Positions 24,423 through 48,521 of a DNA stretch of 64,000 nt are shown here, one piece after another (position 1 is the first letter of the stretch; each line of letters begins with the position of its first letter). The notes beneath the pieces were generated by a model. It was not told the DNA's origin and did no database searches. It saw only the letters and a list, made by a program, of their open reading frames with translations. A program made the position numbers and the translations under genes. The stretch is taken from positions 1 to 64,000 of IMG/VR virus record IMGVR_UViG_3300033148_007227, one strand, 5' to 3'. The DNA is from a virus.

Positions 24423-26294
24423 TTGTCTTTTCTTGATTCAAGTGCAAGAGTCAGAGAGTTGAGAAGGAATTTAGATTATGTTTTAGATAATGTTATTACT
24501 GATAATAATGTTTTAGAATTGAGACACCCTAGTTCAATTATCGAATGGGCGGCTTCAGGTAAATTTCTTGGACTCAAGGGAATCTTCGATAATAGAGGAC
24601 AGTATTATGCACTGAGGGAGTTCTTTCAGTGTTACTGTCCTCTTTGTGCTTCATTTTCCGGTACTGATGTTTTTACAGTAGATAAGAAAGAACTGTATAA
24701 TGATAAAATCTTAGTATGGGAAAATGGAAAAGAGTATTGTCCTGAATGCGGGTTAGAAAAGAAAACTCTTGTAGAGGAGGGGTTACTTAATAATTATAAT
24801 ATTCTTTTAGGTATAGTGGGAATGAGAGCAGGTAAAACTATGCTTGCCTCAATCATAATGACATATTTTGAACAGTTTATTTTGAGTCTTGGTAATATAA
24901 AAGATTGTCTTGGTCTTCACAAATCTCCTCATATTGAATTATGTTGTCTTGCTGTTTCTGGTAAACAAACAAAAGATACAATATGGGCGCAGTTTATAAA
25001 TTTAAGAAGAGATACAGAGTGGTTTAGGAATCTTGATAATCAAATGGTAGATTTGGGTTTTGTAAAAAGTGGTGATTATATAATCTTATCAGAAGAAATA
25101 ATTAATAATGTTTATGGATATAAGATTGTAGGAATGAACTCATCATCAGCTACTTTAGCAGGTAGAACCAGAATTATTTATGTGATTGATGAGCTTGGAA
25201 GATTTGATACTACTGAATCTAAAAGATCAGCTTCGGAAGTTTGGAGAGTTGGAAATCATAGTTTGAAAACTGTAAGAAAATTAGTAAATGAAAAGAAACT
25301 TCCATACTGGATGGGATCATTAATAGCTATTGAGAGTCCTATATCTGTTGATGATTATGGAATGAAAAGACTTGATGTGAAAGATGAGAATATGTTTTCT
25401 ATGAAATTTTCTACTTGGGAATTTAATAGAGAATATAAAGAAGAAGATTTTGAGCAGGAATTTAAAGAAGACTATCACGGAGCAAAAAGAGACTTTGGAG
25501 CTGATCCTCCTGGTTCTGCTATTCCATTTATTGAAGATTGGGAATTATTTAAAAATTTTGTTGAAGATCATGAGTTAGTTTCTCAATTTGAATTTTCTTC
25601 TGTTGATAGATATGTGGGTGAAGTTTGTTATATCGGAAAAACCATGACTTTTGGAACTGTAGATTTGGGAGACTGGTTTATAGCTTGTGATGCAGGAAAA
25701 AGCAGGGATACATTTGCTATTGTAGGAGCAAAAAGAGAGTTTACTGATAATGGAGAAGTTAAACTTGTCCAAGGTTTTGGAGTTCATATTCTTCCAGACG
25801 CGAAAAATAAAAGATATGTTGATTTTTTAAGTATTGAATCTTTATTGGAATCTATTTGTAAGAAGATAAAAGTTAATAAAATATGCTTTGATTACTGGAA
25901 CTCTGAAACTATAGTTCAAAGTTTACAAAGAAAAGGTTATAATGTTGAACAGTATCCTATGAGTTCTGTAAGACTCGCCGATTTTTTTTCTTTCAAAGCC
26001 GCAGCTCTACAAGGAAAAATAAAGTTGCTTCCAAGGAAAGGTTCTGAGGATGGGGAACCTAAACTTATGGATTCTCAGACGAGGCTTTATTGGGAAATGA
26101 AGAGGATGCAGAGAGATAAAAATTTATCTAAGGTGGATCATTCTCATGATTCTACTTCGGATTTGTTTGAATGTGTTGTCAATTGTCATAGGATGATGAC
26201 TTCTGGTTTTAATAAAAATAATCCAGGATGTTATGGAGGGTCTAATTATTCAACCAGCACAATGGGAAGCATAGCAAGATTTAGTAGATGGTAG
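24423..26294 (+). CDS. terL: Terminase large subunit
   Basis: Walker A GMRAGKT, Walker B IYVIDE, RNase H-like nuclease IACDAG...D, FDYWNS, KVDH...SD. Confidence 0.88.
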   Translation: MSFLDSSARVRELRRNLDYVLDNVITDNNVLELRHPSSIIEWAASGKFLGLKGIFDNRGQYYALREFFQCYCPLCASFSGTDVFTVDKKELYNDKILVWENGKEYCPECGLEKKTLVEEGLLNNYNILLGIVGMRAGKTMLASIIMTYFEQFILSLGNIKDCLGLHKSPHIELCCLAVSGKQTKDTIWAQFINLRRDTEWFRNLDNQMVDLGFVKSGDYIILSEEIINNVYGYKIVGMNSSSATLAGRTRIIYVIDELGRFDTTESKRSASEVWRVGNHSLKTVRKLVNEKKLPYWMGSLIAIESPISVDDYGMKRLDVKDENMFSMKFSTWEFNREYKEEDFEQEFKEDYHGAKRDFGADPPGSAIPFIEDWELFKNFVEDHELVSQFEFSSVDRYVGEVCYIGKTMTFGTVDLGDWFIACDAGKSRDTFAIVGAKREFTDNGEVKLVQGFGVHILPDAKNKRYVDFLSIESLLESICKKIKVNKICFDYWNSETIVQSLQRKGYNVEQYPMSSVRLADFFSFKAAALQGKIKLLPRKGSEDGEPKLMDSQTRLYWEMKRMQRDKNLSKVDHSHDSTSDLFECVVNCHRMMTSGFNKNNPGCYGGSNYSTSTMGSIARFSRW

Positions 26295-26382: not shown

Positions 26383-29300
26383 TTGAGATTGGTAGAGATT
26401 GAATATTATGATAAATCAAAGCATAAGTTAACTGAAGAATTTAAGGATGAAGTTTATCTTTTTATACCTTCTTTGGGAATGAACTTAGTTATTATATATG
26501 ATGGAAAAATAGTTGGAGGTATAGAAGCTTATAAAAGTGGAGGAGAGATTTTTTTAAGTGCTATTTATGTTCTGTCTTCTTATTCAGGAAAAGGAATTGG
26601 AAAAGATGCAATAAGTAAGCTCTTTGATTTTTTTGGTTCTGATATAATTATTGGAGAAGCAACTGAAGATTCAATAGGTTTTTGGAAAAGTATTGGAGCT
26701 AAGTTTACTGACTCTGAAAAATTTGAATTTGAATTAACGAGGGATGATTTTATGAAAAATGCAAGTATTAAAAAGGATGTATTGGGAACCGGGAATATTC
26801 TGAGATATGTTTGTCCCTCTTGTATGGATTTAATTACATTGACTCAGGAAGATCAAGATTATTGTCCTTCATGTCAATCAAAATTGCTTCCGGTTCTTCA
26901 TGTAAACATGAGCAAGAGTAAGAATAGAAGAAGGTCTTATTTGACGGATGAAGTGGAAAATAAAATTATGGATTTAACGAATTATTTTGGTTATAGTTTG
27001 GATGATCCAGAAGTTTTGGTTGATGAACTTTCTGTTCTTTTTCCTGAATATGAATGGAGTGAATTGTTTGATATGGTTATGGATTATGAAAGAGATTATT
27101 ATGATGAAGATTATGAGGATTTGATGGAGGAGAGACTGTATAAGAAAAATAGGGAAGCTCAAAATAAAGGTAAGAAAAAGTCTCAGGAAAAAGGAACTCC
27201 TGTTTATGAGATAGAAAATTATAGTGTAGAAAATCCAGAAAACTCAAACAATAATGATAAAGGTCTTCCCGGAGGTTTGGCTGATGGGGTTCCTGATGAT
27301 GAGTTCGATCGGAAACAGTTAGAAAAAGGGATCAATGTGGAATTGGAACATACAGACGACCCTGAAATAGCTAAGGACATAGCAAAGGATCATCTCATGG
27401 AAATGAACGATTATTATGATAGGTTAGAAGAAATGGAAGAAGAAGCTAAGAAGGAAAAAACTAAAGGGGCTAAGAAAAGAATAAAAAGTCGAATAGTTAA
27501 AAACAGCACAAACGGAAATGATATATTAAGAGAAAAATGGGAGCATGAACAGCAGGAAATCCAGAATTTGATTGATGAATTTATAAACGATTGGGCTTTA
27601 GAGGCTGGAATTACTGATCCTTTTGATGATAGAATATATGATATTTTAGATGAGTTTCATGAGTTTAAAAAGAAATTTGGGTTGTTTCTAAATTTAGAAG
27701 AATTTTTTGAGAGTATTCTTGATAACTGGCCTTATGAAGAATCGAAAAAAAGTAAACGAGAAATTGGAAAAAATAAAGTTATAGGTTGGATATGGAAGAA
27801 GGCTGAGAGAGAGTGTGGGAAAAATGCTTCTGAAAAGGATGTTAGAGCATTGTATAATAAATTAAAAAATAAATATAGTGAGAAAGGTGAAATTGCTGTA
27901 TCTAGTTCTAAAAGGATAAAACTATATAGTGATGTATCTGATCCTTATAATAAAAATTATCCGTCTCAATTTATTGATGGTCTGGAAGAAGATGAAGGAG
28001 TTTATGATGATGTGGAAGTAGGTGAAGAAGTTTTGATTGATTACTTTGATCCTCTTATCAGAAGACATCGTGTTGATACAGGTTTTGTTGAGAAAATTAG
28101 AGAAGATGGTTTAATTTTAGTTAGATTAAATCATAATAATATGTTAATTAATGTTCCTCTGTTTGATGTACATAAAATTAGCAAGAAATCTTATAATAAA
28201 AATTATTCACAATCAAAGTATTCAAAAGTTAAAAAGATTATTATGGAAAGTAAAAAAAATTCTATGACCGATGAGGCTCAGAAATTTATTAGTGATAAGA
28301 TTCGTAAACTTATGGATGAAGGAAAACCACAGAACCAGGCTATTGCTATAGCTTATGAGATGGCACGAGAAAGAGGTTATGATGTTCCAAATAAACCTAA
28401 GAAATCAAAAGTTATAGACTGGGTTTGGAAAAAGGCTGAATCTAATAAGAAAAGAAGAAATAAAAAAAGAAAAAGTAAACTTCATCTAGAAGAAATATAT
28501 ATAGTCCGAGAGGATGAACCGAAGAAAACTTTGGTGGGAGTTTTTAGAGATAAGGAAAAAGCTTTTAATTATGCCTCTCTTTGGAAAGATGAGAATGGGG
28601 CTAAAGTTTATAAAATTACTGATCCAGAAAAAATAAAATTATATATTGAGTACAGATTCAACTTTGATCTTTCTAGTGATATATCTTATCCTTACTTTAG
28701 GAGTAGTGATAAAAAGAAAAAATCTGTAAATATGGATGATCTGAAAAATGTTCCTGTATCTGGTGTGTATAAACTTGGGAAGAAATCTTTGAATGAGGAT
28801 TATTCTTATTCAAAATCCAAACAGTCAAAAATGAAAAGGTTATATTATCAAACTAAGGAAGATTTAGAAAGAAGGATAACTGAACTTTCAGATAGGTTTA
28901 TGGAACTTGGTGATATGTTGAAGGAAGCTAATGCTCTTCATCAAGAAATAAAAGATATAATTAATACTATTGCTTCTGCAAGGACAGGGTTGCTCTACGA
29001 GCTTAGAAAAGTTACTGATGATTATAAGAGAATGAAAAGACGGTTTTTTAAAATTAAAAAAGCTCAATGGTTTGATACTAATGAAGATAGAGAAATTGAA
29101 GAAATGGGCAAAGATATAGAGCAACTATCAAGAGAATGGGAATCTCTTGATAGAGAAATAAGTGAGACTGAAAGGGAACTTTATGATCTTGAAAGAGATA
29201 GAGAAGATGTAAAAAGAGAAATGGAAGATGTAGCTAGAGAACTTAGTGAAGCTGGAAAAGAATTTGATATTGATACTATGAGTTATTATACATATCCTAT

Positions 29301-30063
29301 GGGATGGATGGCAAGAGCTTTAAGAGACGGTTCTAGAGGAGAAACTGAAGAATTTAATAAACTTATAGCAGATTACGAGGATGCTGAATTAGCTAAACTT
29401 TCAGATGAAGAACTTACAAGTATAGTTAATCAACAAGCCGATCAAATAACAGAATTAATAAACCGGATAAAGATCAAGCAACAGGAGTTAGATGCTTTAA
29501 AATCTCAACATAAAGAAAAGTTAAAGTTTTTCAGCAGACTTCATGATGAATTGAATACTGAAATTTATAAAACTGAGCAATATATGATTAAGATTAAAAA
29601 ATGGTCTCAGAAGAAATCTAAACCTTGGAAACAAATAATTAACTATATGCTTGAAAATGTTAATGAGGATTTGAGAAAGCAATTCCAGGAGTATATAGAT
29701 AGTTTGGAAGAACTTGACGAAAGGATACGTGTTGATGTTACTCCTAAGAATGTTGAAAGTTCAATTCCTGTTTCCGGTCTAAATCCTGAGTTCTATGCTT
29801 ATCAGTTTATAGAAGATTCTTACAAACGAGGAATGAAAAGAAGTAAAATATGGAGTGAAATAGTTAAAAGGTTTGCTCATGAAGTGGATAAGGAGAGGTT
29901 AAGTTATCTTCTGGAATCTTATCATAACAAAAGAAAAGCTGAAGGTGTGTGGGAAAAGATAAAAGGTTATGTTAAGAGACTTTGGGACAGTGGAGTTTCT
30001 TTGCTTAAGAGTTTGAGAGCCTGGAATAAAGAACTTGAACATGCAATTTATGAAGAAGATTGA
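26383..30063 (+). CDS. Large mosaic head-associated protein (GNAT, Zn ribbon, DUF5661-like, SH3-like, coiled coil)
   Basis: IYVLSSYSGKGIGK acetyl-CoA motif A; CPSC..CPSC; GGLADG...QLEKGINVELEHT...IAKDHLMEMNDYY; KIRKLMDEGKPQNQAIAIA; lies between terL and portal. Confidence 0.8.
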   Translation: MRLVEIEYYDKSKHKLTEEFKDEVYLFIPSLGMNLVIIYDGKIVGGIEAYKSGGEIFLSAIYVLSSYSGKGIGKDAISKLFDFFGSDIIIGEATEDSIGFWKSIGAKFTDSEKFEFELTRDDFMKNASIKKDVLGTGNILRYVCPSCMDLITLTQEDQDYCPSCQSKLLPVLHVNMSKSKNRRRSYLTDEVENKIMDLTNYFGYSLDDPEVLVDELSVLFPEYEWSELFDMVMDYERDYYDEDYEDLMEERLYKKNREAQNKGKKKSQEKGTPVYEIENYSVENPENSNNNDKGLPGGLADGVPDDEFDRKQLEKGINVELEHTDDPEIAKDIAKDHLMEMNDYYDRLEEMEEEAKKEKTKGAKKRIKSRIVKNSTNGNDILREKWEHEQQEIQNLIDEFINDWALEAGITDPFDDRIYDILDEFHEFKKKFGLFLNLEEFFESILDNWPYEESKKSKREIGKNKVIGWIWKKAERECGKNASEKDVRALYNKLKNKYSEKGEIAVSSSKRIKLYSDVSDPYNKNYPSQFIDGLEEDEGVYDDVEVGEEVLIDYFDPLIRRHRVDTGFVEKIREDGLILVRLNHNNMLINVPLFDVHKISKKSYNKNYSQSKYSKVKKIIMESKKNSMTDEAQKFISDKIRKLMDEGKPQNQAIAIAYEMARERGYDVPNKPKKSKVIDWVWKKAESNKKRRNKKRKSKLHLEEIYIVREDEPKKTLVGVFRDKEKAFNYASLWKDENGAKVYKITDPEKIKLYIEYRFNFDLSSDISYPYFRSSDKKKKSVNMDDLKNVPVSGVYKLGKKSLNEDYSYSKSKQSKMKRLYYQTKEDLERRITELSDRFMELGDMLKEANALHQEIKDIINTIASARTGLLYELRKVTDDYKRMKRRFFKIKKAQWFDTNEDREIEEMGKDIEQLSREWESLDREISETERELYDLERDREDVKREMEDVARELSEAGKEFDIDTMSYYTYPMGWMARALRDGSRGETEEFNKLIADYEDAELAKLSDEELTSIVNQQADQITELINRIKIKQQELDALKSQHKEKLKFFSRLHDELNTEIYKTEQYMIKIKKWSQKKSKPWKQIINYMLENVNEDLRKQFQEYIDSLEELDERIRVDVTPKNVESSIPVSGLNPEFYAYQFIEDSYKRGMKRSKIWSEIVKRFAHEVDKERLSYLLESYHNKRKAEGVWEKIKGYVKRLWDSGVSLLKSLRAWNKELEHAIYEED

Positions 30064-30184: not shown

Positions 30185-32323
30185 ATGGCTAAAAAAGTTA
30201 AAAAATCAGGATTGAAGTTTGATAATAAAGAAAACTATTTCCCGATGATAATTCGCACTTCTGGAAACAAAGACTGGATTACAGAGGAAGTCACAAGATT
30301 TTATGAAGGAACTCAAGAAGGTATAAGTAAGTCAGGTCAAATCATAGGAGGGGGAACTTCGGCTGTCAGTCCTAATATTTCTGTAACTGTTCCTCAACCT
30401 TATATTCCTGAGTTTGCATCTCCTGACAGATTGTTTTTTCCAAGCAATGTCAAGGAAGCAATGAAGTATTGGAGATTCTTTTATGCTCTTGATCCAGTTT
30501 GCGGAAATATAATTGATATGTACTCGGAGATGCTTTTGTCTGATGCTGAGCTTTCAGGAGAAGGGTTTGATAGTGAAATAAGGGATATATGTTATCAGGC
30601 TTTGGAGGATACAGAGGCTTTAGGACAATTTAGATGGTTGATAGTTGGTTATATGGTTGATGGAGAGGTTATTCCTCATCTGATTTGGGATGAGAATCAG
30701 GGTCATTGGATTTATCTAGGATTTCAAGACCCTATGAATGTGATAGTTGAGGATGTTCCATTTATAGGAGTTGATCCTTATGTGGAACTTGAAATTTCGG
30801 ATAAAGTTAGAAATATGCTGACTAATCCCGATCCTAAATTTGAAAGATTTAGAAAGAATGTTCCTGAAGAATTTCTTGAATTAATTATGATGGGAAGAAA
30901 TATACCATTAAACACGGAAGAAAATGTAACTTTTATTCCTAGAAGATTAAGTCCTTATGATGTGAGGGGTGTAAGTATATTTAGTAGAATATGGAGAGTT
31001 TTGATGTATGAGGATGCAATATTTAATGCTAGTTTGGCTACTGCTCGAAGACATGCCGGACCTTTGAAAATTGCAAAATTAGGAAACCCTGCAACCGGGT
31101 GGATACCTGGGCCGGAGCATGAAGACAAATTAAGATCATTATTAGCAATAGCTGAAACTGATCCTCATGCTTGGTTAATTTATCATTATGGTTTAAATAT
31201 GGAAGCATTTGGAACAACAGAAAGAGTAATGACTATAGATAAGAATTGGGATGTGATTGAAAGAATTAAACTCATAGCTTTTGGAACTTCCAAGGCTTTT
31301 CTCACAGGAGAGGTGACATATGCCAGCTCTTATGTAGATTCTAATATAACAATGTTTGATAAGTCAACTAAAAGTATTGGTGATGTTAAAATTGGGGATA
31401 AAGTTATAGATAGATTTGGAAATGTTAAAGAAGTGACTGATGTTTTGGTTTATCCGTCTCCTGATGAGATGATGGAAATAACTTTAGTTGATGATAAAAA
31501 ATTAACTATTACAGATAATCATAAATTACCTGTTGGTGAAAATGGTTTAAAGATAAGAGCAGATGAGATTACGGATACTGATTATTTGTATTCTCCCTTA
31601 GAAGATAAATATATAAAAGTTAAGTCTGTAAGTAAAGTAAAGGTTGATAAGAGTGTAAATCCTGAAGTTTATAGTTTGACTGTAAAAGATACGGAGAGTT
31701 ATATTTTAGATGGGATTGCTTCTTATAATTCAGCAGAAAAAGGTTTACAAATATTTCTTTCAAGATTGAATGGTATGAGATCATTCTTTGAAAGGAGATG
31801 GTGGTATCCTAGATTTTTTAAAGTTATGGCTGAGAAAAATGATTGGATCATGCCAACTGAGGCAGAAGTTAAGCATCGAGTAAAAACTAAAAGAAGCAGG
31901 AGAGAACTTGAAGAAGGAAATAGGTATATTATTCCTAAGATAGTATGGAGTAAAAGTCTTGATCCTCAGAGTAAGGGGGACCTTGTAAGATTATATGGGG
32001 AGATAAAAGAAAAATTTGGGGTTAATGTTTCAAGAACTGAAGCATCTGCTACTGTAGGGTTGAATTGGAAGGAGGAGGAAGAAAAATGGAGAGAGGAAAA
32101 TAAAGTTCTTAGAGAATTAGAAGAAAAATATGGAGAAGAAGGTGAGTCTCCTGCTGAAAAAACTCCAGAAAGTTCAGGTGGTTTTTTACCTCCTGGTGGT
32201 CCTCCTCCTCCAGGAATTGGGAGTCCTGGGGAAATGGAGGAATTAGAAACTCCTGTGGAAGGGGAGGAAATTGAAGAAGGAGAAGAAATTCCTCCTGAAG
32301 AAGCTGGAGCAGAAGTTGAATAG
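30185..32323 (+). CDS. Portal protein (intein-containing)
   Basis: Position between terL and protease; WRFFYALDPVCGNIID, RGVSIFSRIWR, KLGN...WIP; Pro/Glu-rich tail. Confidence 0.85.
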   Translation: MAKKVKKSGLKFDNKENYFPMIIRTSGNKDWITEEVTRFYEGTQEGISKSGQIIGGGTSAVSPNISVTVPQPYIPEFASPDRLFFPSNVKEAMKYWRFFYALDPVCGNIIDMYSEMLLSDAELSGEGFDSEIRDICYQALEDTEALGQFRWLIVGYMVDGEVIPHLIWDENQGHWIYLGFQDPMNVIVEDVPFIGVDPYVELEISDKVRNMLTNPDPKFERFRKNVPEEFLELIMMGRNIPLNTEENVTFIPRRLSPYDVRGVSIFSRIWRVLMYEDAIFNASLATARRHAGPLKIAKLGNPATGWIPGPEHEDKLRSLLAIAETDPHAWLIYHYGLNMEAFGTTERVMTIDKNWDVIERIKLIAFGTSKAFLTGEVTYASSYVDSNITMFDKSTKSIGDVKIGDKVIDRFGNVKEVTDVLVYPSPDEMMEITLVDDKKLTITDNHKLPVGENGLKIRADEITDTDYLYSPLEDKYIKVKSVSKVKVDKSVNPEVYSLTVKDTESYILDGIASYNSAEKGLQIFLSRLNGMRSFFERRWWYPRFFKVMAEKNDWIMPTEAEVKHRVKTKRSRRELEEGNRYIIPKIVWSKSLDPQSKGDLVRLYGEIKEKFGVNVSRTEASATVGLNWKEEEEKWREENKVLRELEEKYGEEGESPAEKTPESSGGFLPPGGPPPPGIGSPGEMEELETPVEGEEIEEGEEIPPEEAGAEVE
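31325..31729 (+). mobile_element. Mini-intein (135 aa, Ser1) in portal
   Basis: TYA|SSYVDSNITMFDKSTKSIGDVKIGDKV (block A), ITDNHKL (block B), VYSLTV..ESYILDGIASYN|S (blocks F/G); no endonuclease. Confidence 0.88.
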
Positions 32324-32414: not shown

Positions 32415-35400
32415 ATGAGAAAAATAAATTCTATTTCAGAAGAAGTTAGGTTACTTCCTTCTATAGCTGCTCGTAATGAAAAAGGAAGATTAAATATTCA
32501 GGAAGCTATTAATATTGTTGCTGATAAATACAAACTTTCAAAAAATCCTGATGATTATGAATATATGGTTTTAATTGCTCTTCATGCTGATGAGCCTAAT
32601 TGTAATGGAGATGCTTTTACACTTGAAGAACTGGAAAGATTCGATCCTAAGTATGGATGTAAAGTTTATCAAAGTTTTACTCTTAAACCTCATTTTATTG
32701 AACATCGGCAGGATGGGGAAGTTTACGGTTTTGTTCTGGATTCTCATCTTGAGAAACCAAAAGAAGGAAATGCTTATGTAGAACTCTGTATTGCAGTTGA
32801 TAAAACCAAAGACCCAGTTTATGGAGAAATGGTTAAGAATGGGGAAGTTGATAAATTCTCTATGGGGTGTTCTGTTGATTATACAGTTTGTAATGTTTGT
32901 GGAAATGAAAGTTATGATGAAGCTAGCTTTTGCAATCATATTTTGAATCATAAAATGTCAACTTTTAAGGTTGCAGATGAGAATGGAAATGAAGAAGAAA
33001 AGTTGGCTTATGAAAAATGCTTCGGAGTTGTGTTTGATGAAATTTCTGCTGTGGGTGATCCTGCTGATGAAGGAGCTTTGAAGCAGGAAACTTTGAAAGC
33101 GGCGATGAAGAAAAGGTTTAAAAAGTTAGAAAAATTAAGTAAGAAAAAAGCTCAGAATGATTTTGATATAGATGAATTGTTATGGGAAGAATTAAAAGAA
33201 TATGTAGGAGCTATAATTTCAAAGTATGGAGATGAGATTAGATATGATCTTGATAAAATAGATGAATTGTTATGGAAAGAATATAGGATTAATGTTGAAG
33301 ATACAGGATTTGACTTGGGTAAGTTAGTTTCTGAGTATTTAATGGAGCGTGAAGGGAAGAAAGATAGAAAAAGTAAAAAATCTCGTTATGAGGGTTCTCT
33401 TTCATCTTTTGGTGGTGATGTGTTTGAGATTATTAAGGATAAATCTGATTTATTAGATTCTCCATTAAAACCTTTAAAATTTGATAATGAGTCTGTAGTT
33501 ATTCATTTTGGTTATGAAGGAATAAATTATTATATGTCATTTGAGAGATATCGTGTACGTGGTCCTGTAACATTGTTTCAAGTTAGTATTTCTGCAACAG
33601 GTGATGGTATTACAGGTGTTATAGGTTTGTCTGGTAATATTTATTCTGATCCACATGATGTGGCTTCTGATCTTATGAATGCATTAGTGGCTTATGAACA
33701 GTTTGGTGATGTAAGAGATGCTGGAACTGTAAAATCTATAAGGAAATTGAGAAATAGAAAAAAGAAATCTCAGAAATGGGTTGATTGGGGTATAAAAGAA
33801 GATAAACCTAAAGAAATATTTGGTAAAAGTAAGGTTTCATTTTCAGAAAGTGAATTAAGGAGTATAGCTAAGAATCTTATAAGAGAAGGATTGAGTAAAA
33901 CTAAAGTTATAGAAACTCTTATGAGATTGAGTAATATCACTCCTTTTGCAACTGCCGAACAAATTGTGGAGGATATAATGTACATGGTAGCTGATAAGAA
34001 AAAGGTTGGGGCACAATCTTCATTCTCAAGAAATCAAGGACATATCAAGAAGGTTTCAAGACTTATAAAAAAGTATAGAGAAGAAACCGAGAGAAAAGAA
34101 TGGGCTTTGGTTTCTAAGGATGATGCAAGCAAAATTTTGAAGTGGTTTGGTCCTGAGAAACCTTCTAAAGAGGAAGTTCAAAAAGAGGAACAACGTGTTC
34201 AGTATTTCAAAAGTAAAGGTAGAAAAATAAAGAAAGTTCAAAATTCAGAAGCTACAAATTATAAATATTGGATGCACACTGTATCAGGTGATGTATATGC
34301 TGTTGGTGTGAATGAAAGAGGAGAAGTTGTAGAATCTGTTGGTCCATTATATTATAAAGAATATCAGGAATTTCAACCAGAAGATTTTAGACATAATATG
34401 ATAACTGAAGATAATGAATGGTTTAATGAAAACTCTGAAGATTTTGTATTAAAATCCAGTAGAAAGAAAGCTCAAGTTCCTGATGAAAATGTTGTTCCTT
34501 CTGAAAAGGAGAGGGGATGGTTATTGAACTTGTCTCAAGATATAACAACTGGTGAGGTTACAGATGAATTTTCTGCTCAACAGTGGTTCAGAGATAAGTA
34601 TAATCGTGAACCTAATTATGGTGAGCAGGAAAATATGAGAAGTTTATTTTCTAAGAAAGGATTGAAAAATAGATTTCTCAAGAAAAAGAAGTTGGATGAG
34701 TCTGGTGTATATGGAAAAACTTTAAATAAAAACAGGAGGAATAAAATGAGAGAAAGAACTAGGAGTGTTAGGAAAACTCCTGTTTCTAGGACTGTTGAAA
34801 GTAAAATTCTTAGAAACAGAAAGGGTAGAAGTTTAGAAAATAACAAAAGAAGAAATCTTAGAAACAGGAAATCGGCAAAGGATTTAGTAAAGAAAGAGTA
34901 TTATATTGAAGGTATTGATAAGAGAGCTACAGATGTGAGGTATCCTAATTATAGAGATTGGAAAATTACTGTATTAGGAAATGGAAAGGTTAAGTTTGTC
35001 AGACTTGGTAATGATAGGAGAACTTCTTTCAGAAAGGTTCTGAAAGCTGGTGATGAGAGAAGGTTTGCAGAAAATGTTCTTGATGATTTGGTGAGAAAGG
35101 GGTTGGCTTTTGTAGTTAAGAAATATGGATTTGGAAGATTTAAATCAATTCTTGAAGATGGAACAATTGACAGGGGTACTGGCAGTCTTTCTCCTAGAGA
35201 AGATAGGTTGACTTCTGATGGTATAACTGATAAAAAGGATTATTCTTTAAAGAATATGAAGGATCAGGTTTCAGATGATGGGTATTGGGATAAGATGAGT
35301 GGTAGAAGGTATAGAAGAAAAGGTTTGAAACTTAACAAATGGAGATTCATAAAAGCTAAGAAGTTGGCTAGAGCTTTGGAGAGACTTTATGAAAAATATG

Positions 35401-36311
35401 AGAAGAAAAGTGATAAAGAAGCTAGGAAGATCATACTTGATTTATTTACAAAAGGAGCTTTGAAGAGGAGAGCTCAAGATGATGAAGAACTTCCTGATAA
35501 TTTGGGACAGGTAATAGAGGAGAATGTAGAGGTAGTGGATGTTCCCGGTTTAGTGGAGGAAGTTACTAATTATTATGTGGATGATATGGAAATGAGTCCT
35601 GAAGATGCCGCTACTGAGATAGTTGATGAATTTGTAGAAAGTGATGCTCCTGATGAAATAAAAGATGAAATAAAGAAAGAAGTGGAGGATATTGCAGAAA
35701 CAGTTGAAGCTGAAACACAGGAGGTTGTGGAAGAAGAGATGGAAGATGTGAGGGAAAAGGTTGATGAGATAGCTGATAAGGTTCCTTCGATGGAAGAGAT
35801 GGGAATAGATGAAGAGGAGATTGAAGTTGCATCTTCCAGAAGAGCGAAGGAATTAAATAAAGCTTTTAGAGATAAATTCTATAGAGCTTTAAAACTTGCG
35901 GCTACAAGACAACTTTTAAACATAGATACTTCCGGTCTCTTTGCTATAAAGGACGAGCTTTGTGAGGAATTGATTCATCCTCATGGAAAGTTCGGAGGTT
36001 TGAAGACAGACACGGCTCTTGATATCATTGAAAGGTCTTTTAGAAAGGTTCTTTCATCAGAGGCTATAGATGAATTTATAAAGTCGGCTGAAAGATTAAT
36101 GGAAATGAATGATGATGCTTTCAATCAGATCGAAGATGATATTAGGAATCTTTCCCCTGTAAGTGTATCGGGGATGTCTGACAAAGAAAAGGAAGCTAGT
36201 AAAAATGACTTGACTGTTGTGGGAAGAACTGGTTCTGGAATTTATAGTGATGAGAATTTTAAAGATTTAGTCAAGAAATCTTTACCTGGTTTTGGACTAG
36301 ACAAAAGTTAA
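32415..36311 (+). CDS. Prohead maturation protease fused to multiple modules and an acidic scaffold-like C-terminus
   Basis: N-terminal PNCNGDAF, FIEH, FSMGCSV..TVCNVC..FCNH, FDEISAVGDPADEGA (HK97/assemblin-type protease pattern); lies between portal and capsid genes. Confidence 0.8.
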   Translation: MRKINSISEEVRLLPSIAARNEKGRLNIQEAINIVADKYKLSKNPDDYEYMVLIALHADEPNCNGDAFTLEELERFDPKYGCKVYQSFTLKPHFIEHRQDGEVYGFVLDSHLEKPKEGNAYVELCIAVDKTKDPVYGEMVKNGEVDKFSMGCSVDYTVCNVCGNESYDEASFCNHILNHKMSTFKVADENGNEEEKLAYEKCFGVVFDEISAVGDPADEGALKQETLKAAMKKRFKKLEKLSKKKAQNDFDIDELLWEELKEYVGAIISKYGDEIRYDLDKIDELLWKEYRINVEDTGFDLGKLVSEYLMEREGKKDRKSKKSRYEGSLSSFGGDVFEIIKDKSDLLDSPLKPLKFDNESVVIHFGYEGINYYMSFERYRVRGPVTLFQVSISATGDGITGVIGLSGNIYSDPHDVASDLMNALVAYEQFGDVRDAGTVKSIRKLRNRKKKSQKWVDWGIKEDKPKEIFGKSKVSFSESELRSIAKNLIREGLSKTKVIETLMRLSNITPFATAEQIVEDIMYMVADKKKVGAQSSFSRNQGHIKKVSRLIKKYREETERKEWALVSKDDASKILKWFGPEKPSKEEVQKEEQRVQYFKSKGRKIKKVQNSEATNYKYWMHTVSGDVYAVGVNERGEVVESVGPLYYKEYQEFQPEDFRHNMITEDNEWFNENSEDFVLKSSRKKAQVPDENVVPSEKERGWLLNLSQDITTGEVTDEFSAQQWFRDKYNREPNYGEQENMRSLFSKKGLKNRFLKKKKLDESGVYGKTLNKNRRNKMRERTRSVRKTPVSRTVESKILRNRKGRSLENNKRRNLRNRKSAKDLVKKEYYIEGIDKRATDVRYPNYRDWKITVLGNGKVKFVRLGNDRRTSFRKVLKAGDERRFAENVLDDLVRKGLAFVVKKYGFGRFKSILEDGTIDRGTGSLSPREDRLTSDGITDKKDYSLKNMKDQVSDDGYWDKMSGRRYRRKGLKLNKWRFIKAKKLARALERLYEKYEKKSDKEARKIILDLFTKGALKRRAQDDEELPDNLGQVIEENVEVVDVPGLVEEVTNYYVDDMEMSPEDAATEIVDEFVESDAPDEIKDEIKKEVEDIAETVEAETQEVVEEEMEDVREKVDEIADKVPSMEEMGIDEEEIEVASSRRAKELNKAFRDKFYRALKLAATRQLLNIDTSGLFAIKDELCEELIHPHGKFGGLKTDTALDIIERSFRKVLSSEAIDEFIKSAERLMEMNDDAFNQIEDDIRNLSPVSVSGMSDKEKEASKNDLTVVGRTGSGIYSDENFKDLVKKSLPGFGLDKS

Positions 36312-36327: not shown

Positions 36328-37014
36328 ATGTTAGATCGTACAAGAAATGTTGTACTGAAAAGGTTAGGGACTGATCCTGTTGATCCTAATGCTACTTTTG
36401 AAGAAGGAGATTTGCTTCATTGGTCTGCTGATGGGTGGACTAAGAGTTCGGATGGAACTGCTGATGTTTTGAGAGGAATTGCAGGTCTTACTAAAAGTAG
36501 TATTCTCTATGCTCCTCAGATTGATGAAGAGGCTGTTTTGACCGAAGAGGATGTTATCGAATTGGCTCATGCAAATATTGTGGATGGTTCTCAGAAGGTT
36601 ACTGATGAGGCGGGAACTACAACTTATGAAGAGGATACTGATTATACTTTTAATGATACTAATGGAACTATTGCTCGTATTGCTACTGGCTCCATTGATG
36701 ACGGTGATACTGTTCTGGTAAGTTATACTTATCAGAGGACTGAGGAGGAGATTCAGGAGGAAATTGGTAAGAACCTTAGAAATGATCTTGATGAAACTTT
36801 TGGATCGGGAAATGTAGTTGTATATCAGGGTCGGATGACTATTGTCACTAATCGTTATGACACTTCTCAGGCTTATGCAGTTAATGATCCTCTCTATGAT
36901 AATGGAGATGGTTTATTGACTTCTGATAGTACTGGTAGTGTTGTGGCAGTAGGTTATGTTAAACAGGTCCCCACCGCTTCTGATCCTTGGTTGATTGCGG
37001 AGTTGGACCTGTAA
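36328..37014 (+). CDS. Head decoration/cement protein
   Basis: Directly upstream of MCP; YDTSQAYAVNDPLY...G.LT...VGYV..VPT motif; inserted beta domain. Confidence 0.65.
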   Translation: MLDRTRNVVLKRLGTDPVDPNATFEEGDLLHWSADGWTKSSDGTADVLRGIAGLTKSSILYAPQIDEEAVLTEEDVIELAHANIVDGSQKVTDEAGTTTYEEDTDYTFNDTNGTIARIATGSIDDGDTVLVSYTYQRTEEEIQEEIGKNLRNDLDETFGSGNVVVYQGRMTIVTNRYDTSQAYAVNDPLYDNGDGLLTSDSTGSVVAVGYVKQVPTASDPWLIAELDL

Positions 37015-37046
37015 GGTTCTAAAAAGTTAATAGGAGGTAATTAAAA

Positions 37047-38099
37047 ATGCGAAAGAATCCTTATAGAGAATATAAGTCTGGTAGAACAGGAAAGTTATGG
37101 GAGGAAGACCCTTTTGAGAAGGATTTTGATAGAAATGGTGAGCTTAATGCTTGGGATAATAAAGATGCTGGAAATAGAATTAGTGATATTTTAAGAAGAG
37201 CTTCTTCTCAAAAAACTGAAGTTATACGTAAATCTTTAGTAGGAGAAGACGTTAGGCGACGTGTGCTTACTGCGGCGGCTAAAGACCCTCAAGAGGGGAT
37301 GAAGGTTATAGCTCAGACTCTTGGAGAAGTTGTTTACAAGATCGTGGACTATGCTGGATGGACTCGAAAGGTTCTGGATGTTGTTACTCTGAATCAGGGT
37401 GAAATATTTAGAATCCCGAAAGATGTTGATGTTCTTGGTTGGGTTGTTGCTGGTGATGGTCAAACCATAGTTTCACAGCTTCGTTCAAAGTATGTTTTCC
37501 CTGGTGAGTTCAAGAATACAGCCTTTGTGGAGATTGATATACTTGATATCGTACAGGCTAATTGGGATATTTTTGATCGTGGTGTGGATCGTGCGGCTCA
37601 GCAGATAATGAGAGGTGAGGATGTTCGGGCACAACAGCTTTTGGATAGGGTTGGTAGAACTGTCAATGATGTTGTTACCTACGCGACTTTGAATCTTAAT
37701 GTCTTTGAAGACGTGAGATTTCAGGTTGAAAGACACAGGCTGACTTGTGATAAGTTCATCATCTCAAGAAGTGAACTTTCTGACATAGTTAAAACTATGT
37801 CCACGGAAGTTGATTTTGTTACTCAGAGAGAGTTGATCCTAGCAGGTTATATTGGGAATGTTCTGAATTGTCAGATCATTACATCTGCTGGTATTGGAGT
37901 AGAGGAGGTTGTTCCTCCTGGTAGGATTTATGCTGTTACTGAGGGTAAGTATCTCGGAAGGCTTGGTGAAAGATTATCACTTCAGAGTGAAGAGTATAAT
38001 ACTCTTGTGAGAAACGAGATTAAGAAGGGTGTTGCTCAGTACGAGATTATTGGTCTTGGTAACGGTAACAGTAAGGCTGTGGCTATCGGTTCTAAGTAA
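37047..38099 (+). CDS. Major capsid protein (HK97 fold)
   Basis: 350 aa, strong AGGAGG RBS, DYAGWTRKVLDV, QIMRGED, VTQRELILAGYIG, VPPGRIY; gene order. Confidence 0.85.
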   Translation: MRKNPYREYKSGRTGKLWEEDPFEKDFDRNGELNAWDNKDAGNRISDILRRASSQKTEVIRKSLVGEDVRRRVLTAAAKDPQEGMKVIAQTLGEVVYKIVDYAGWTRKVLDVVTLNQGEIFRIPKDVDVLGWVVAGDGQTIVSQLRSKYVFPGEFKNTAFVEIDILDIVQANWDIFDRGVDRAAQQIMRGEDVRAQQLLDRVGRTVNDVVTYATLNLNVFEDVRFQVERHRLTCDKFIISRSELSDIVKTMSTEVDFVTQRELILAGYIGNVLNCQIITSAGIGVEEVVPPGRIYAVTEGKYLGRLGERLSLQSEEYNTLVRNEIKKGVAQYEIIGLGNGNSKAVAIGSK

Positions 38100-38125
38100 A
38101 GTTTTTAAGTTTTAATTGGAACAAT

Positions 38126-38169
38126 ACCTTTGTCTTCATGAGGAAGATAAAGAGGTGGGTGAAAATCCC
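38126..38169 (+). other. Two adjacent RNA hairpins after MCP (terminator/structured leader candidate)
   Basis: CTTTGTCTTC-atgag-GAAGATAAAG stem, then GGG-tgaaaat-CCC. Confidence 0.5.
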
Positions 38170-38189
38170 TGATCGAATAATGAAAGAAG

Positions 38190-39068
38190 ATGGAAAATTC
38201 AAAAAAGAGTGTTCAAGTTGTAGATTTAATATATCGAAGGTTAGAGCCTACGAGACCAGGCAAAGCCAGAAAATTATTAGGTTCAGGAAAAGCAAAGTTA
38301 TTAGATGAGGGATTGCCTTTAATTCAACTACAGAAAAAAGTATTCAAAAAGGAGGATACGAAAATGGATCGAAGGAGTATTGAAAGTTATTTTAAGGAAA
38401 ATGATGAAGTATACGTTCAAAATATTTCGGGAGGAGTAGTATCAATGAGTTTTTATTCTGGTCAAAGACCTGAACCTTTTACTCTTCCTAATGATAGAAG
38501 ACCTATAAATCTTTCTGATTATATGACTAAGGAGATAATTAAAAGTTCTCCTGATTTTAGAAAGTTGGTTATGCGGAGACCTCCTGCACTCAGGTTGCTT
38601 ACTGTTGAACAATATGAAAATACTATAAGGAAGATTGCAAAAGAAACTTCTAAAGAACCTGATGATATAGTAGAAGAAATTGCTGAAAAGATCAGTAAGC
38701 ATAGGAGTAAAGAACTTGAACCTTTAAAAGAAGAAAAAGATAGTTTGAAAATGGATGTTATGGAAACTCCTATGGATGAGGGTGTAGAAGATAATGATTT
38801 AGAAATTCCTGGAACTGCTGATACAGGGTTAAATCCTAGAGTGTTACAGATAATTTCTCAAACTTCTTCTTTGTCTGAAAATAGGATGAAAGCTTCTGAA
38901 GTGATTGATGAGCTTGGAAAGTTGAATCTGACTGTTGATGAATACAATTATGTAATTGGTGGTTGTGGTTATAAGACAGTTGTGGCTTGGGCGCAGAAAA
39001 GACTTTCAGTATTACAGAAAGAACAAAGTGAGGAAACTACAGAGAAGAATGATAATATTGAGTCGTAA
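38190..39068 (+). CDS. Post-capsid virion protein with N-terminal PLMP/RRXRR-like extension
   Basis: VQVVDLIYRRLEPTRPGKARKLLGSGKAKLLDEGLPLIQL; second in-frame ATG at 38364 with GGAGG RBS. Confidence 0.75.
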   Translation: MENSKKSVQVVDLIYRRLEPTRPGKARKLLGSGKAKLLDEGLPLIQLQKKVFKKEDTKMDRRSIESYFKENDEVYVQNISGGVVSMSFYSGQRPEPFTLPNDRRPINLSDYMTKEIIKSSPDFRKLVMRRPPALRLLTVEQYENTIRKIAKETSKEPDDIVEEIAEKISKHRSKELEPLKEEKDSLKMDVMETPMDEGVEDNDLEIPGTADTGLNPRVLQIISQTSSLSENRMKASEVIDELGKLNLTVDEYNYVIGGCGYKTVVAWAQKRLSVLQKEQSEETTEKNDNIES

Positions 39069-39105
39069 TTATTTTGTAAATCCTTGATATAATAAGGAGT
39101 AGAAT

Positions 39106-39804
39106 ATGAAAAGGAGATCAATTTTAAATAGGAAAGCTGTAAATAAATCTAATGCAGGTAAATCTCAATATAGAAAAAGTAAAAAGATTAAGTTTCAAAG
39201 AGATGGATATGAAATATATAAAGATAAAGTTCAAGTTTACTATAATTCCTCTACAGAAGCTTTTGATCCTTATACAGTGGTTATAGGAGATTCTGTATTT
39301 ACTATGAGTTCTAATGCTGATAGTCCTCAAGGAGTTAATATGTATATAGGAGAGATTGAAGATTATAATATAGAAGACTTTGGAATACCGATTCCTTTAA
39401 GTGAAGCTCCTGAAGGAGTGCAACGAGGTATTAAACAGAGATTAGTTAATATTTCTTTCAAAGATAAGCTTATTGAGGAAGGATTTAAAATTGATGAACA
39501 TGGAATTATAAGAACTCCAGGAAAATTTGAAGGTGAACGTTATCCTGTAGTTTATTTTTATGATCTGATGATGAATGATGAAGCGGAAGAAGAATATGTT
39601 TGGGGAGACAATACAGGTTTTGCTGTTTTTACTGTTACAGAGGATGATATAAGAGAACTTGGACCTGAGTCTGATCTGCAAGTAGGAGAAAAGGTAGGTA
39701 TTGAATGGACAGAAGAAGGTTTTGTATATTATTTAACTGGTGTGACCGATGAAGATATTGCTCAAGCTAAAGGATATATGGGTGAATATTATGAGGAGGA
39801 GTAA
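39106..39804 (+). CDS. Acidic two-module protein with basic leader
   Basis: MKRRSILNRKA...SKKIKFQ, then acidic modules (DPYTVV..., PGKFEGE...). Confidence 0.75.
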   Translation: MKRRSILNRKAVNKSNAGKSQYRKSKKIKFQRDGYEIYKDKVQVYYNSSTEAFDPYTVVIGDSVFTMSSNADSPQGVNMYIGEIEDYNIEDFGIPIPLSEAPEGVQRGIKQRLVNISFKDKLIEEGFKIDEHGIIRTPGKFEGERYPVVYFYDLMMNDEAEEEYVWGDNTGFAVFTVTEDDIRELGPESDLQVGEKVGIEWTEEGFVYYLTGVTDEDIAQAKGYMGEYYEEE

Positions 39805-43815: not shown

Positions 43816-44135
43816 AAAAAATAAGAATATATGAGAAACTTAAAGGTTGGAAATTAAAATGGTATGTTGCTGGATGGGATGATTTGGATTTGGCAAGAAA
43901 ATGGTATGAGGCAGGATGGGACAATCCTACCTCAGCTATGGGTTTTTATGAAGCTGGTTGGTTAGACCCTATATTAGCTCTTGAATGGAAAAAATCTGGA
44001 TGGAGTGGGATTGATGCTGATTATGCTCTGAAATATTATAATAAAGGTTTTGATCCTTCAGAGGCTCTTCATTTTTTTGAAGATGAAGGTTTAAGACCTG
44101 ATGAAGCTTTGGAGATGATGAAAAATGACGTTTAA
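43812..44135 (+). CDS. W-x-x-A-G-W repeat protein
   Basis: About 14-aa repeats WYVAGW/WYEAGW/FYEAGW/WKKSGW/YYNKGF. Confidence 0.75.
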   Translation: MKKIRIYEKLKGWKLKWYVAGWDDLDLARKWYEAGWDNPTSAMGFYEAGWLDPILALEWKKSGWSGIDADYALKYYNKGFDPSEALHFFEDEGLRPDEALEMMKNDV

Positions 44136-44340
44136 TGAGATTATGGATGTTCTTCAGAGTATGGCTTTTGATGTTCCTGAGTATCGTGATAAAATAAGAG
44201 AAGTTGCTATGTCTATTGAAAGTAAAAGAAATCGTTTGAGAGATTATGTTAATGAATTAGAAGAATTATCTTATTATTATAATGATAAAGAATTAGAAGA
44301 TATTTTTAAGAAACTTGATAATGTTGTGTATGGAGATTAA
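44125..44340 (+). CDS. Hypothetical protein
   Basis: ORF with GGAG RBS, helical. Confidence 0.65.
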   Translation: MTFNEIMDVLQSMAFDVPEYRDKIREVAMSIESKRNRLRDYVNELEELSYYYNDKELEDIFKKLDNVVYGD

Positions 44341-46255: not shown

Positions 46256-46361
46256 AGAGAGTGTAAAAAGGAACTTTCTGAAACTTGATATTTATATTCA
46301 AATAGCTTCAAAGATGATTGGGATATTAAGCTAAGTTTCAGTAGTTAAGGAGATTGCTTAA

Positions 46362-46493
46362 ATGTAAAAAATTTTTGTGGTTGATAGGAAAGGAAAGTCA
46401 TTTCTTTCGACTTGTTCTACAAGAGCAAGATTATTATTGAAGAAAAATAAAGCTAAAATTATATATGGTTTTCCATTCGTAATTCAGTTGTAA
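46362..46493 (+). pseudogene. PLMP/RRXRR-like relic (IscB/IsrB N-terminal domain)
   Basis: AAGGAG RBS, then M*KIFVVDRKGKSFLSTCSTRARLLLKKNKAKIIYGFPFVIQL*; in frame with the sheath ATG. Confidence 0.7.
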
Positions 46494-46520
46494 ATTGAAT
46501 AAAAAGGGAGGTCATGTAAG

Positions 46521-48521
46521 ATGACACAATATATTGAGCCTGGAACTTATATAACTGAGTTGTTTAAACCTCAAGCTGTTATTCCTCCTGGTTTGGGTTT
46601 GAATCTAGTTATTGTAGGAGTAGGGAGTAAACAAAAGTCTATAGTCAATGAGGAAGTTTTGAGAGGAGGAATATATAATGAACTTTTGACTGTGTCCGGT
46701 ACGTCTCCTCATTCAGCTACGTTGGTTAATACTTCAGATCAGAAAAAGGAAAACACAACTATTTATGCTGATGGAATTGCTCTGACTTTGGATCAGTGGC
46801 AGTTTAATTCTGCTACTGAGGTTCAGATTCTTGATGCTTATTTTAATTCAGGAGCTACTTATACAATAGATTATGTAGCGATTGATTCATATATTGATGA
46901 TCTTGATAATGAAATTCAAAGTGTGGATAAGGTGGGTTTGTTTTCTGGAAGTTCAAATTACAAAGAAAATGAGGATTTTCAAATAACAGGTGGTGATATT
47001 GATTGGACAATATTAACTGATGCGGAGTTTACTGGATTAAATACTGAAACTTTTGATGTATCTACCAATAAAAATTTGAAGCTGAGTTTAGATGGAAAAC
47101 CTTCTATAACGATTGATGTTTCTGCGACCGCATCTGATCCTGCAAATGCGACTGCGACTGAGATTGTTACTGACATTAATGCGGCTTTGGTGGCAAGTGG
47201 AGATTATGGAGCTGATTATGGATCGGTTGCTTCTGATGTTGGTGGAAAAGTTAAACTTACTGCTCCAGGTCTTGATCCTTATGTCGGGATCAATTCTATA
47301 ATAACTTTGTTTACCACAACTGATTCTGCTCTTGATACAATTTTTGGTTTGTCTGAAGATGATGCTCCTTATGAGTATAGAGGAACAGGAAAGAGACCTT
47401 TAGCTGGTCAAACATATTTTGTGGATTATAAAATAACTAGACCTAGCTCAGATTATAATAAAGTAAGACAATTTAATAATGATATTGATTTTTACAATGA
47501 CATAGGTTACCCGGCTGAGGGTAATACATTGGCTAATGCGGGAGAGTTGGCTTGGTCAAGAGGTGTTTTAACTCTGTTTGTTGTTCAGGTGGAAGATGCT
47601 GATGATGATGGGGTTTATACAAATTCTGATTTTATTACTGCAATTGATGCTCTTGTGGATGAGAGAGAGGCTACTGATATTGTGGTCTTGAGAAGTAATG
47701 CTACGATAAGAGCAAAGGTGAGAGATGTACTTACAAATGAGAGTGCGCAACTGAAATCAAACTATAAGAGATATTGGTGTGGGATGCCAAGAGGATCATC
47801 TTTGGGAGATGTAGATACTCCTGATACGGCTATTTGGGTGGCCCAGAGAGAGTTTTCTGTCACCCCTGATTCAGTAGCAAGAGGAAGATTTATAGTTATC
47901 TTTCCTTCTGATTTACAACAGACGATTGTTGAGAATACAACAGAAAAAATTCTTGATGTTGATTCTAATTATATGGCTACGATTCTTGCGGCCGAGACTG
48001 TAAGTTTTGAAAATGCAAGTAATAGTCTCTTTGGAAAAACTTTCTCAGGGTTGACAGTTGAAAATAATCTCAGTAAGGCTGATATGAGATTTGCGGCGGC
48101 TAACGGTATAACTTGTGTTTTCCAGGAAGGGGGAGTATTGAAGTTGTTTGATGTTCTTACTACCGATGCTTCCGGGGATGCAAGATATGAAGAACCTTCA
48201 AGCTCTACACAGAAAGATAATTTAGCTTTCAAAATGATTGATGCTATTGATAATAATTTAAAAGGGATAGTACCTGATAATCCTTCAGAATTTGTTGGTA
48301 CTATTAAAGCGGTTGCTGGAGGAGTTATACTTGGAGAAATTGAATCTGGTAATATTGGATACTATACAGATGATGATGGGAATGTGAGAGATATAGATTA
48401 TAATGTTGATCTAGTAGCTTTCAGAGAAGCTGGTGATCCTAGAAATTATCGGTTGAGATACTACTTTAATTTGAGATATGTTGCTAAGAGATTCTTTGGT
48501 GAGTTCACCGTTACGATTTAA
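46521..48521 (+). CDS. Contractile tail sheath protein
   Basis: MTQYIEPGTYITE N-terminus, 666 aa, AANGIT...DVLTTD, YYFNLRYVAKRF C-terminus. Confidence 0.88.
   Translation: MTQYIEPGTYITELFKPQAVIPPGLGLNLVIVGVGSKQKSIVNEEVLRGGIYNELLTVSGTSPHSATLVNTSDQKKENTTIYADGIALTLDQWQFNSATEVQILDAYFNSGATYTIDYVAIDSYIDDLDNEIQSVDKVGLFSGSSNYKENEDFQITGGDIDWTILTDAEFTGLNTETFDVSTNKNLKLSLDGKPSITIDVSATASDPANATATEIVTDINAALVASGDYGADYGSVASDVGGKVKLTAPGLDPYVGINSIITLFTTTDSALDTIFGLSEDDAPYEYRGTGKRPLAGQTYFVDYKITRPSSDYNKVRQFNNDIDFYNDIGYPAEGNTLANAGELAWSRGVLTLFVVQVEDADDDGVYTNSDFITAIDALVDEREATDIVVLRSNATIRAKVRDVLTNESAQLKSNYKRYWCGMPRGSSLGDVDTPDTAIWVAQREFSVTPDSVARGRFIVIFPSDLQQTIVENTTEKILDVDSNYMATILAAETVSFENASNSLFGKTFSGLTVENNLSKADMRFAAANGITCVFQEGGVLKLFDVLTTDASGDARYEEPSSSTQKDNLAFKMIDAIDNNLKGIVPDNPSEFVGTIKAVAGGVILGEIESGNIGYYTDDDGNVRDIDYNVDLVAFREAGDPRNYRLRYYFNLRYVAKRFFGEFTVTI

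Follow-up and report, generated by a model that had tools for sequence, protein, structure and literature searches.

A PLMP domain without a nuclease opens a conserved, predicted dual-start phage gene behind a tandem-hairpin RNA leader

IscB and IsrB are transposon nucleases ancestral to Cas9. To our knowledge, the literature knows their PLMP domain only as a built-in component of these proteins, and it was lost en route to Cas9. Here we describe a PLMP domain in a phage protein that is not a nuclease. The DNA analyzed (the window) comprises positions 1 to 64,000 of the virus record IMGVR_UViG_3300033148_007227, which is 103,855 bases long. On the + strand, the next open reading frame (ORF) after the major head protein gene encodes 292 amino acids (38190..39068). 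It begins with the PLMP domain, is preceded by a tandem-hairpin RNA leader (38126..38169), and contains an internal ribosome-binding site and start (38350..38366) behind the domain. We read it as a late gene of a large myophage that sits in the head module, is conserved, and is predicted to have two starts. A preliminary description, made from the letters of the DNA, had proposed either a deleted IS200/605 element or a domesticated RNA-binding leader giving long and short isoforms.

Structural work on the nucleases sets the frame for comparison. In IsrB, the PLMP domain binds SL7 and SL8, two hairpins in tandem, and contacts the Shine-Dalgarno sequence (SD) just upstream of the ORF; the terminal hairpin carries this SD and is held by PLMP (PMC9581776). 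The PLMP fold resembles the N-terminal domain of initiation factor 3 (IF3-N), a ribosome-binding domain (PMC9581776). The contacts of PLMP with RNA are reported to be mostly sequence-independent (PMC9640706), and therefore a sequence comparison of the phage leader with omega RNA has little power.

Residues 6-57 of the 292-amino-acid ORF are a genuine PLMP domain. Its first 58 residues match Pfam PF14239 (RRXRR) at 28.7 bits (E 1.4e-6), above the gathering cut-off of 25 bits, which bears out the PLMP-like pattern that the preliminary description had read in residues VQVVD...LIQL. Of the 174 profile positions, the match takes in 1-48 alone, and these belong to PLMP and not to RuvC. PF14239 has two matches only in the entire record of 103,855 bases, this one and another at 46371-46553, and neither comes with a nuclease. 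With 11 relatives as input, an AlphaFold model showed an antiparallel beta-sheet and one helix, with a predicted local distance difference test (pLDDT) score of 80-87 in the PLMP part. The PLMP domain of IscB and IsrB is solved in 9K2Z, 9K30, 8DMB, 9NVU, 7XHT, and 7UTN. Model residues 6-57 superpose on the N-termini (residues 1-53) of solved IscB/IsrB chains with a root-mean-square deviation of 1.6-2.1 Å and 33-41% identity. The VIA-align Z values were 9.5 for HfmIscB, 8.2 for TbaIscB, 7.7 for DtIsrB, and 7.4 for OrufIscB. The top eight Foldseek matches were all IscB/IsrB, and 1tif stood at rank 32. Comparing a profile of 13 phage PLMP segments with all PDB chains, we recovered nine IscB/IsrB sequences (E 1.8e-15 to 1.4e-5; TbaIscB 1.8e-15, OgeuIscB 1.5e-8, IsrB 1.4e-5); the sole other match was marginal and unrelated (E 9e-4). 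The best-conserved stretch of the domain is the basic helix, T/P-x-P-x-K/R-A-R-K-L. Supported by the Pfam match, the fold, and the selection analysis below, PLMP (fold residues 6-57) and an 11-codon linker make up the N-terminal extension of the predicted long isoform (38190..38363, +).

The rest of the ORF lacks a nuclease, as the preliminary description had noticed. Beyond profile position 48, where the Pfam match ends, residues 59-292 gave no Pfam or PHROG match to RuvC, bridge helix, HNH, or TI. No D/E is conserved at the positions matching those of RuvC, and the model of the next domain had no RNase H match, although the absence of a fold match alone is weak evidence. The C-terminus is an acidic linker with a helical bundle, not HNH or TI/WED. 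The suspected omega RNA upstream was not found either: in Rfam searches for HEARO/omega RNA, neither 37000-39500 nor 38080-38240 gave a match at E <= 10, whereas the positive control scored 86-139 bits at seven sites, covering six of the seven genuine IscB loci searched. For IS200/605, we found no TnpA and no multi-copy spread, and the gene has capsid and tail genes as its neighbors; no search was made for transposon ends.

The fusion of PLMP to the remainder of the protein (the body) is a trait of a large family of uncultured phages and not a local accident. The close relatives (ten at 41-57% identity; 282-306 amino acids) all carry PLMP, and 13 PLMP residues are invariant among 11 relatives. 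An exhaustive profile search returned 329 cluster representatives at E <= 1e-3; 64 of the 118 members scanned were PF14239-positive, and dozens of 50%-identity clusters keep PLMP in frame. Querying with an alignment of the body only, we reached eight distant viral loci. Seven of these have PLMP in frame (28-37 bits each on Pfam), and L021 alone is without it. At every PLMP-bearing DNA locus that we read (15/15), the domain continues into the body with no stop codon, at body identities down to about 28-35%. Purifying selection acts on the PLMP part as it does on the remainder of the gene: in one unsaturated pair (L003/L010, dS about 0.25), the ratio of nonsynonymous to synonymous substitution rates (dN/dS) was 0.29 for PLMP, compared with 0.27 for the body. 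Thus, relatives do keep PLMP at this locus under selection, a point on which the preliminary description had made the choice between domestication and relic depend.

No prophage relative was found in the genome contigs searched, tblastn of GenBank phages returned only Virus Rctr197k (annotated 'hypothetical'), and the Protein Atlas gave only unnamed viral clusters. Public gene calls often begin at the internal ATG (P0013, P0047, and other 'short forms'), and PLMP is missing from many deposited sequences. Many database 'short forms' without PLMP arise because gene callers start at this ATG; for example, P0047 is the L014 gene called from the internal Met, and the L014 DNA has PLMP in frame upstream.

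The two-hairpin leader is a conserved, covarying structured RNA. Its plan on the + strand is ACC-P1-GA-GGU-P2, which resolves the two hairpins first seen just upstream of the gene. P0 pairs ACC (38126-38128) with GGT (38154-38156), and P1 pairs 38129-38137 with 38143-38151 around a loop at 38138-38142; together they span 38126-38156 and enclose the GA bulge (38152-38153). P2 (38157-38169) pairs GGG (38157-38159) with CCC (38167-38169) around the loop TGAAAAT (38160-38166). A small out-of-frame ORF over the leader (38138-38308) was taken as spurious. In an alignment of seven relatives (A3), 96.5% of cells were paired, compared with 42-51% when the partners were slid. Both sides had changed in 10 of 15 leader pairs, a value reached by 0 of 500 shuffles; the structure had been drawn by eye from the same sequences tested for covariation, which favors it. 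The P1 sequence is wholly different between loci and outscores its own shuffles at every locus, and P2 covaries as GGG/CCC, AGG/CCT, and GAC/GTC.

The leader was present at all PLMP-bearing loci examined. In distant clades whose body is only about 30% identical (L018, L020, L022, L024, and L025), ACC-P1-GAGGY-P2 lies 22-39 nucleotides before the PLMP start, and L014 and L026 carry relaxed forms of the plan. The motif was absent from the PLMP-less loci of L021, PaBG, and phiRSL1. The strict hairpin pattern occurs at one site in the 64-kb window, both strands considered. No second copy was found in the 104-kb record with a regular expression or with the covariance models R1 and R2, which were built from the close clade and are too narrow, missing distant-clade motifs visible by eye and by regular expression. 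The best look-alike elsewhere in the record by regular expression (L155:7240) lies inside a coding ORF, and an R1 match at 44088-44149 (E 0.61) was judged noise. Scanning viral contigs with the DNA pattern, we found that 116 among the 117 matches listed had neither a P1 stem of at least 4 bp nor a downstream PLMP; the one true match among those listed was the L003 contig. In L014, L024, L018, and L026, a separate terminator-like hairpin precedes the motif, and no terminator-like site was predicted in the window; therefore, the leader is not simply the terminator of the capsid gene. The locus L001 (IMGVR_UViG_3300004481_000290) has the leader twice, at L001:5519-5552 and L001:5928-5965, and the second copy stands before the PLMP gene.

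At the junction of PLMP and body, AGGAGG (38350-38355) sits 8 nucleotides ahead of the ATG at 38364-38366, the predicted start of the short isoform. The frame reaches this ATG 11 codons beyond '...LIQL', as had been read before. A GGAG core stands about 6-10 nucleotides before an in-frame ATG at all 12 loci for which the junction was printed. The peptide encoded at this site varies by locus (KKED, NKEG, ERGG, VRRI, IRRK, PKEDR, and others). Since GGAG is kept while the peptide differs, what is conserved is the ribosome-binding site rather than the residues that it encodes. Between L003 and L010, the 12 codons of the linker that bears the SD show no substitution, which is a small sample. The purine-rich site of the upstream ATG at 38190 is weaker and reads GAAAGAAG in the window. 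From these signals, we infer that a long (292 amino acids) and a short (234 amino acids) isoform would be made, the short one predicted to be frequent and the PLMP-tagged long one rarer. Of the earlier idea of a domesticated leader with two isoforms, the internal SD and ATG kept as nucleotides and the upstream structured RNA kept through evolution now stand, whereas the RNA binding and the isoforms themselves stay predictions.

We propose the following mechanism. The body is the ancestral part, and in a large clade of uncultured phages it has gained an N-terminal PLMP domain without RuvC, HNH, or guide RNA. The strong internal SD and ATG (38350-38366) would yield an abundant short isoform, and the weaker purine-rich site at the upstream ATG (38190) would yield a rarer PLMP-tagged long isoform. 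The leader, about 20-40 nucleotides before the upstream ATG, lies where the terminal omega-RNA hairpins of IscB/IsrB lie with respect to the PLMP codons. Through its PLMP, the long isoform might then bind the leader on its own mRNA, and this binding would limit or tune initiation at the upstream ATG and so fix the ratio of long to short isoform. Arguing by analogy with the nucleases, we give an even chance to the claim that the long-isoform PLMP binds its own leader and thereby sets translation, or the amount, of the long isoform. We infer both the binding and the direction of regulation.

Several observations weigh against this proposal. The P-L-M-P tetrad is degenerate, reading R-L-E-P in the window, L-E-(P/S)-T in the clade, and L-L-P-T or L-S-Y-T in distant members; only the L and the following T/P-x-P are retained. 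The phage leader has no detectable similarity to HEARO/omega RNA in Rfam, and the leader covariance models found no match at genuine IscB loci. As there are no cross-matches between leader and omega RNA, the parallel with OMEGA is one of position and architecture only. At 33 nucleotides from the ATG, the conserved GAGGU is too distant to serve as the SD of that ATG, and the co-occurrence of motif and PLMP rests on very few PLMP-less loci. The second PLMP copy of the record, described below, has no hairpin leader. In L001, the first leader copy comes right after the capsid stop and is followed by an inserted ORF of ~100 amino acids that is not PLMP. Finally, PLMP packs extensively against RuvC and TI in IscB/IsrB (PMC9581776; PMC9640706).

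This packing suits an explanation in which PLMP is a protein-protein adaptor, docking a minority of the body onto a phage or host protein (capsid, portal, or ribosome) or onto the body itself, the hairpins being unrelated. The resemblance of the fold to ribosome-binding IF3-N (PMC9581776), echoed by 1tif at Foldseek rank 32, and the location of the gene in the head module point the same way. However, the partner surfaces RuvC and TI are absent here, the best-conserved stretch is a basic helix suited to nucleic-acid contact, and the leader accompanies PLMP at all PLMP-bearing loci examined. We consider the adaptor unlikely, though with some weight left to it.

The hairpins may instead act on the capsid message, as a 3' stabilizer, a processing site, or an attenuator, while the PLMP isoform binds another RNA, in trans, in the virion, or in the host. 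The motif starts 27 nucleotides past the capsid stop codon, and the L001 copy directly after the capsid gene stands before a different, inserted ORF. On the other hand, the hairpins have no T-run and no terminator call, and in several relatives a separate terminator-like hairpin follows the capsid stop and precedes the motif. The spacing to the PLMP start stays within 22-39 nucleotides, and no such motif follows the capsid gene in the PLMP-less L021, PaBG, and phiRSL1. A role on the capsid message is thus unlikely, and little weight remains to it.

We also considered, as a doubtful and largely speculative extension, that PLMP with its terminal hairpin pair is an autonomous, portable translational-control cassette outside OMEGA. 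On this view, the phage family would either have captured the cassette independently or preserve the ancestral context that gave IsrB/IscB their PLMP and the omega-RNA 3' end, and the second copy before the gene in the tail-sheath position would be a further insertion.

The PLMP codons could also be a translated leader, similar to an upstream ORF, whose translation opens the mRNA for the internal start, the peptide having no function. The invariance of the internal SD and ATG and the linker unchanged between L003 and L010 would fit such a role. Yet the amino-acid conservation tracks the PLMP fold (13 invariant residues, dN/dS 0.29, confident fold), and the segment is still Pfam-positive at 30% body identity, where a mere spacer would not retain a domain; a functionless peptide is therefore improbable. 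A neutral relic of an IS200/605-IscB/IsrB insertion with the nuclease part deleted, the other explanation of the preliminary description, is scarcely credible and is rejected for the 38190 copy on its in-frame conservation (15/15 loci and dozens of 50%-identity clusters) and purifying selection, and also lacks omega/HEARO RNA, although true IscB loci give it, as well as TnpA, any RuvC remnant, and a multi-copy distribution, even if PLMP is otherwise known only from IscB/IsrB and the stop-interrupted copy at 46362-46493, not conserved in relatives, is relic-like.

The body common to both predicted isoforms (38364..39068, +; 234 amino acids; phrog_17686, E 2.6e-4) has three parts. A compact alpha/beta domain (ORF residues 59-177) leads into a linker that is acidic and disordered (about 175-211), and the C-terminal domain (about 212-292) is helical. 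The model of the middle domain (59-177) reached a pLDDT of 93 and a predicted template-modeling score of 0.84, and it had no match in the PDB (best Z 4.3, Foldseek E 0.36). The idea that this domain (beta-beta-beta-alpha-beta-alpha) is a decayed RuvC/RNase H was dropped, as the pLDDT-93 model gave no such match. The middle domain does have matches (E 5e-5 to 2e-2) among uncharacterized proteins of ~200-240 amino acids from PaBG, Motura, BcepSaruman, and phiRSL1. Some relatives have the body but no PLMP, and jumbo phages, PaBG and phiRSL1 among them, have it as judged by fold. The body is thus an old protein in this lineage of large phages, to which PLMP was added.

The record carries a second, stop-interrupted PLMP copy on the + strand (46347..46523), in a single frame throughout. 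It runs from an SD AAGGAG (46347-46352) through ATG 46362 and TAA 46365 into 41 intact PLMP codons (46368-46490). These are followed by TAA 46491, TAA 46500, the SD AAGGGAGG (46504-46511), and ATG 46521 of a 666-amino-acid gene in the tail-sheath position. PF14239 scored 31.8 bits on the DNA (46371-46553) and 29.4 bits on the 41-amino-acid peptide. L001 and L003 have no such copy ahead of their orthologous gene, and PF14239 was found in 0 of 17 homologs of the 666-amino-acid protein. Rfam yielded no credible family, HEARO/omega included, in the surroundings of the two PLMP copies. The second copy could be a decayed second fusion, a mini-protein made from a non-ATG start, or an assembly error.

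The surroundings of the gene are those of a head module. The major head (capsid) protein gene (37047..38099, +; phrog_2522, E 2.8e-44) is its conserved upstream neighbor (the preliminary description had also placed the gene after that of the major capsid protein), and the space between the two is only 90 nucleotides. The order of capsid gene and PLMP gene is the same in the relatives L001 and L003. By tblastn, the capsid protein matches the major head proteins of the jumbo myophages phiRSL1, PaBG, and Bacillus phage G, and also Erwinia Y3-like ones; the nearest record is Virus Rctr197k, at 50%. Further upstream on the + strand lie the large terminase (24423-26294) and the portal (30185-32323; phrog_16240, E 1e-71, matched in two stretches), and between them a 1226-amino-acid ORF (26383-30063) with a GNAT acetyltransferase domain and DUF5661. 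Portal residues 413-504 match Pfam Intein_splicing at E 4e-7, under the cut-off, and the portal probably contains an intein. A 1298-amino-acid protease fusion follows (32415-36311, +), whose first ~220 residues are a head maturation protease (phrog_18299, E 1.5e-33). A repetitive, highly charged extension, possibly a fused scaffold, makes up the other ~1000 residues. A 228-amino-acid decoration-like protein is listed between the protease fusion and the major head protein. Elsewhere in the window, the PHROG match of the ribonucleotide reductase large subunit (6138-8804) is split (residues 21-273 and about 619-880) by an insert of ~340 amino acids, possibly an intein or homing element. Across window positions 1-64000, the + strand holds all ORFs of at least 150 amino acids that are not nested in a longer + strand ORF. 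GC is about 33%, and the GC skew is +0.16 to +0.50 throughout, an unusually strong and uniform strand asymmetry.

In the literature searched, we found no paper describing a nuclease-free PLMP phage gene. The known role of PLMP, holding the terminal omega-RNA hairpins and touching the SD, has been read from cryo-EM structures. In the phage gene, PLMP persists alone and under selection, across hundreds of phage lineages, beside a small structured RNA and a bypass start. It therefore offers a minimal natural system for the effect of PLMP on RNA and translation without the nuclease, and a route toward the origin of the PLMP/omega-RNA 3' module. Judged from sequence, the arrangement suggests a captured RNA-protein control module, and it likely represents a new class of phage translational switch that would set the ratio of two nested proteins. 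It also carries a warning for annotation, because gene callers that start the gene at the internal ATG, as they frequently do, hide the PLMP domain.

Compared with IscB/IsrB, the phage PLMP is likewise a domain of ~50 residues at the extreme N-terminus, made of a beta-sheet and a basic helix. It bears the same signature, V-x-V-x-D ... P-x-K-A-R-x-L-L ... P-x-I-Q-L, and its coding region is again directly downstream of tandem RNA hairpins. In IscB/IsrB, however, RuvC, bridge helix, HNH, and TI follow PLMP, whereas the phage protein continues into an unrelated non-nuclease body. The phage gene further differs in its degenerate P-L-M-P, in an internal start that bypasses the domain, and in its place in a head module and not in IS200/605. 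The leader resembles the omega-RNA 3' hairpins (SL7/SL8 of IsrB; terminal hairpins 1 and 2 of IscB) in that two hairpins adjoin each other immediately 5' of the PLMP codons, and an SD-like GAGG lies within or next to the pair. In contrast to the omega RNA scaffold (Rfam HEARO, RF02033; 200-400 nucleotides), it has no guide, nexus, or pseudoknot scaffold and is only about 45 nucleotides long. At the control IscB loci L030-L035 (Baaleninema simplex PCC 7105, multi-copy), the last hairpin before the ATG reads ACC-CC-UUUU-GG-GAGUU by eye. It shares the ACC...GAG(G/U)U frame with the phage leader, which may be chance.

Two groups of phage genes offer parallels for the proposed regulation. T4 RegA and gp32 and the MS2/PP7 coat proteins are translational autorepressors; each binds an operator hairpin on the mRNA that encodes it. 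The logic proposed here would be the same, with a protein binding a small structured operator near its own start and limiting its synthesis. These autorepressors differ in using another RNA-binding fold, and the predicted binding module of the present gene would be only on the longer of two in-frame products. The lambda genes C/Nu3 and the S holin/antiholin are in-frame dual-start genes with long and short products. As in these genes, an internal SD and ATG lie in frame within a longer ORF, predicted here to give nested proteins in a set ratio. Unlike in lambda, the extra N-terminal piece is a complete borrowed PLMP domain with its own conserved leader RNA.

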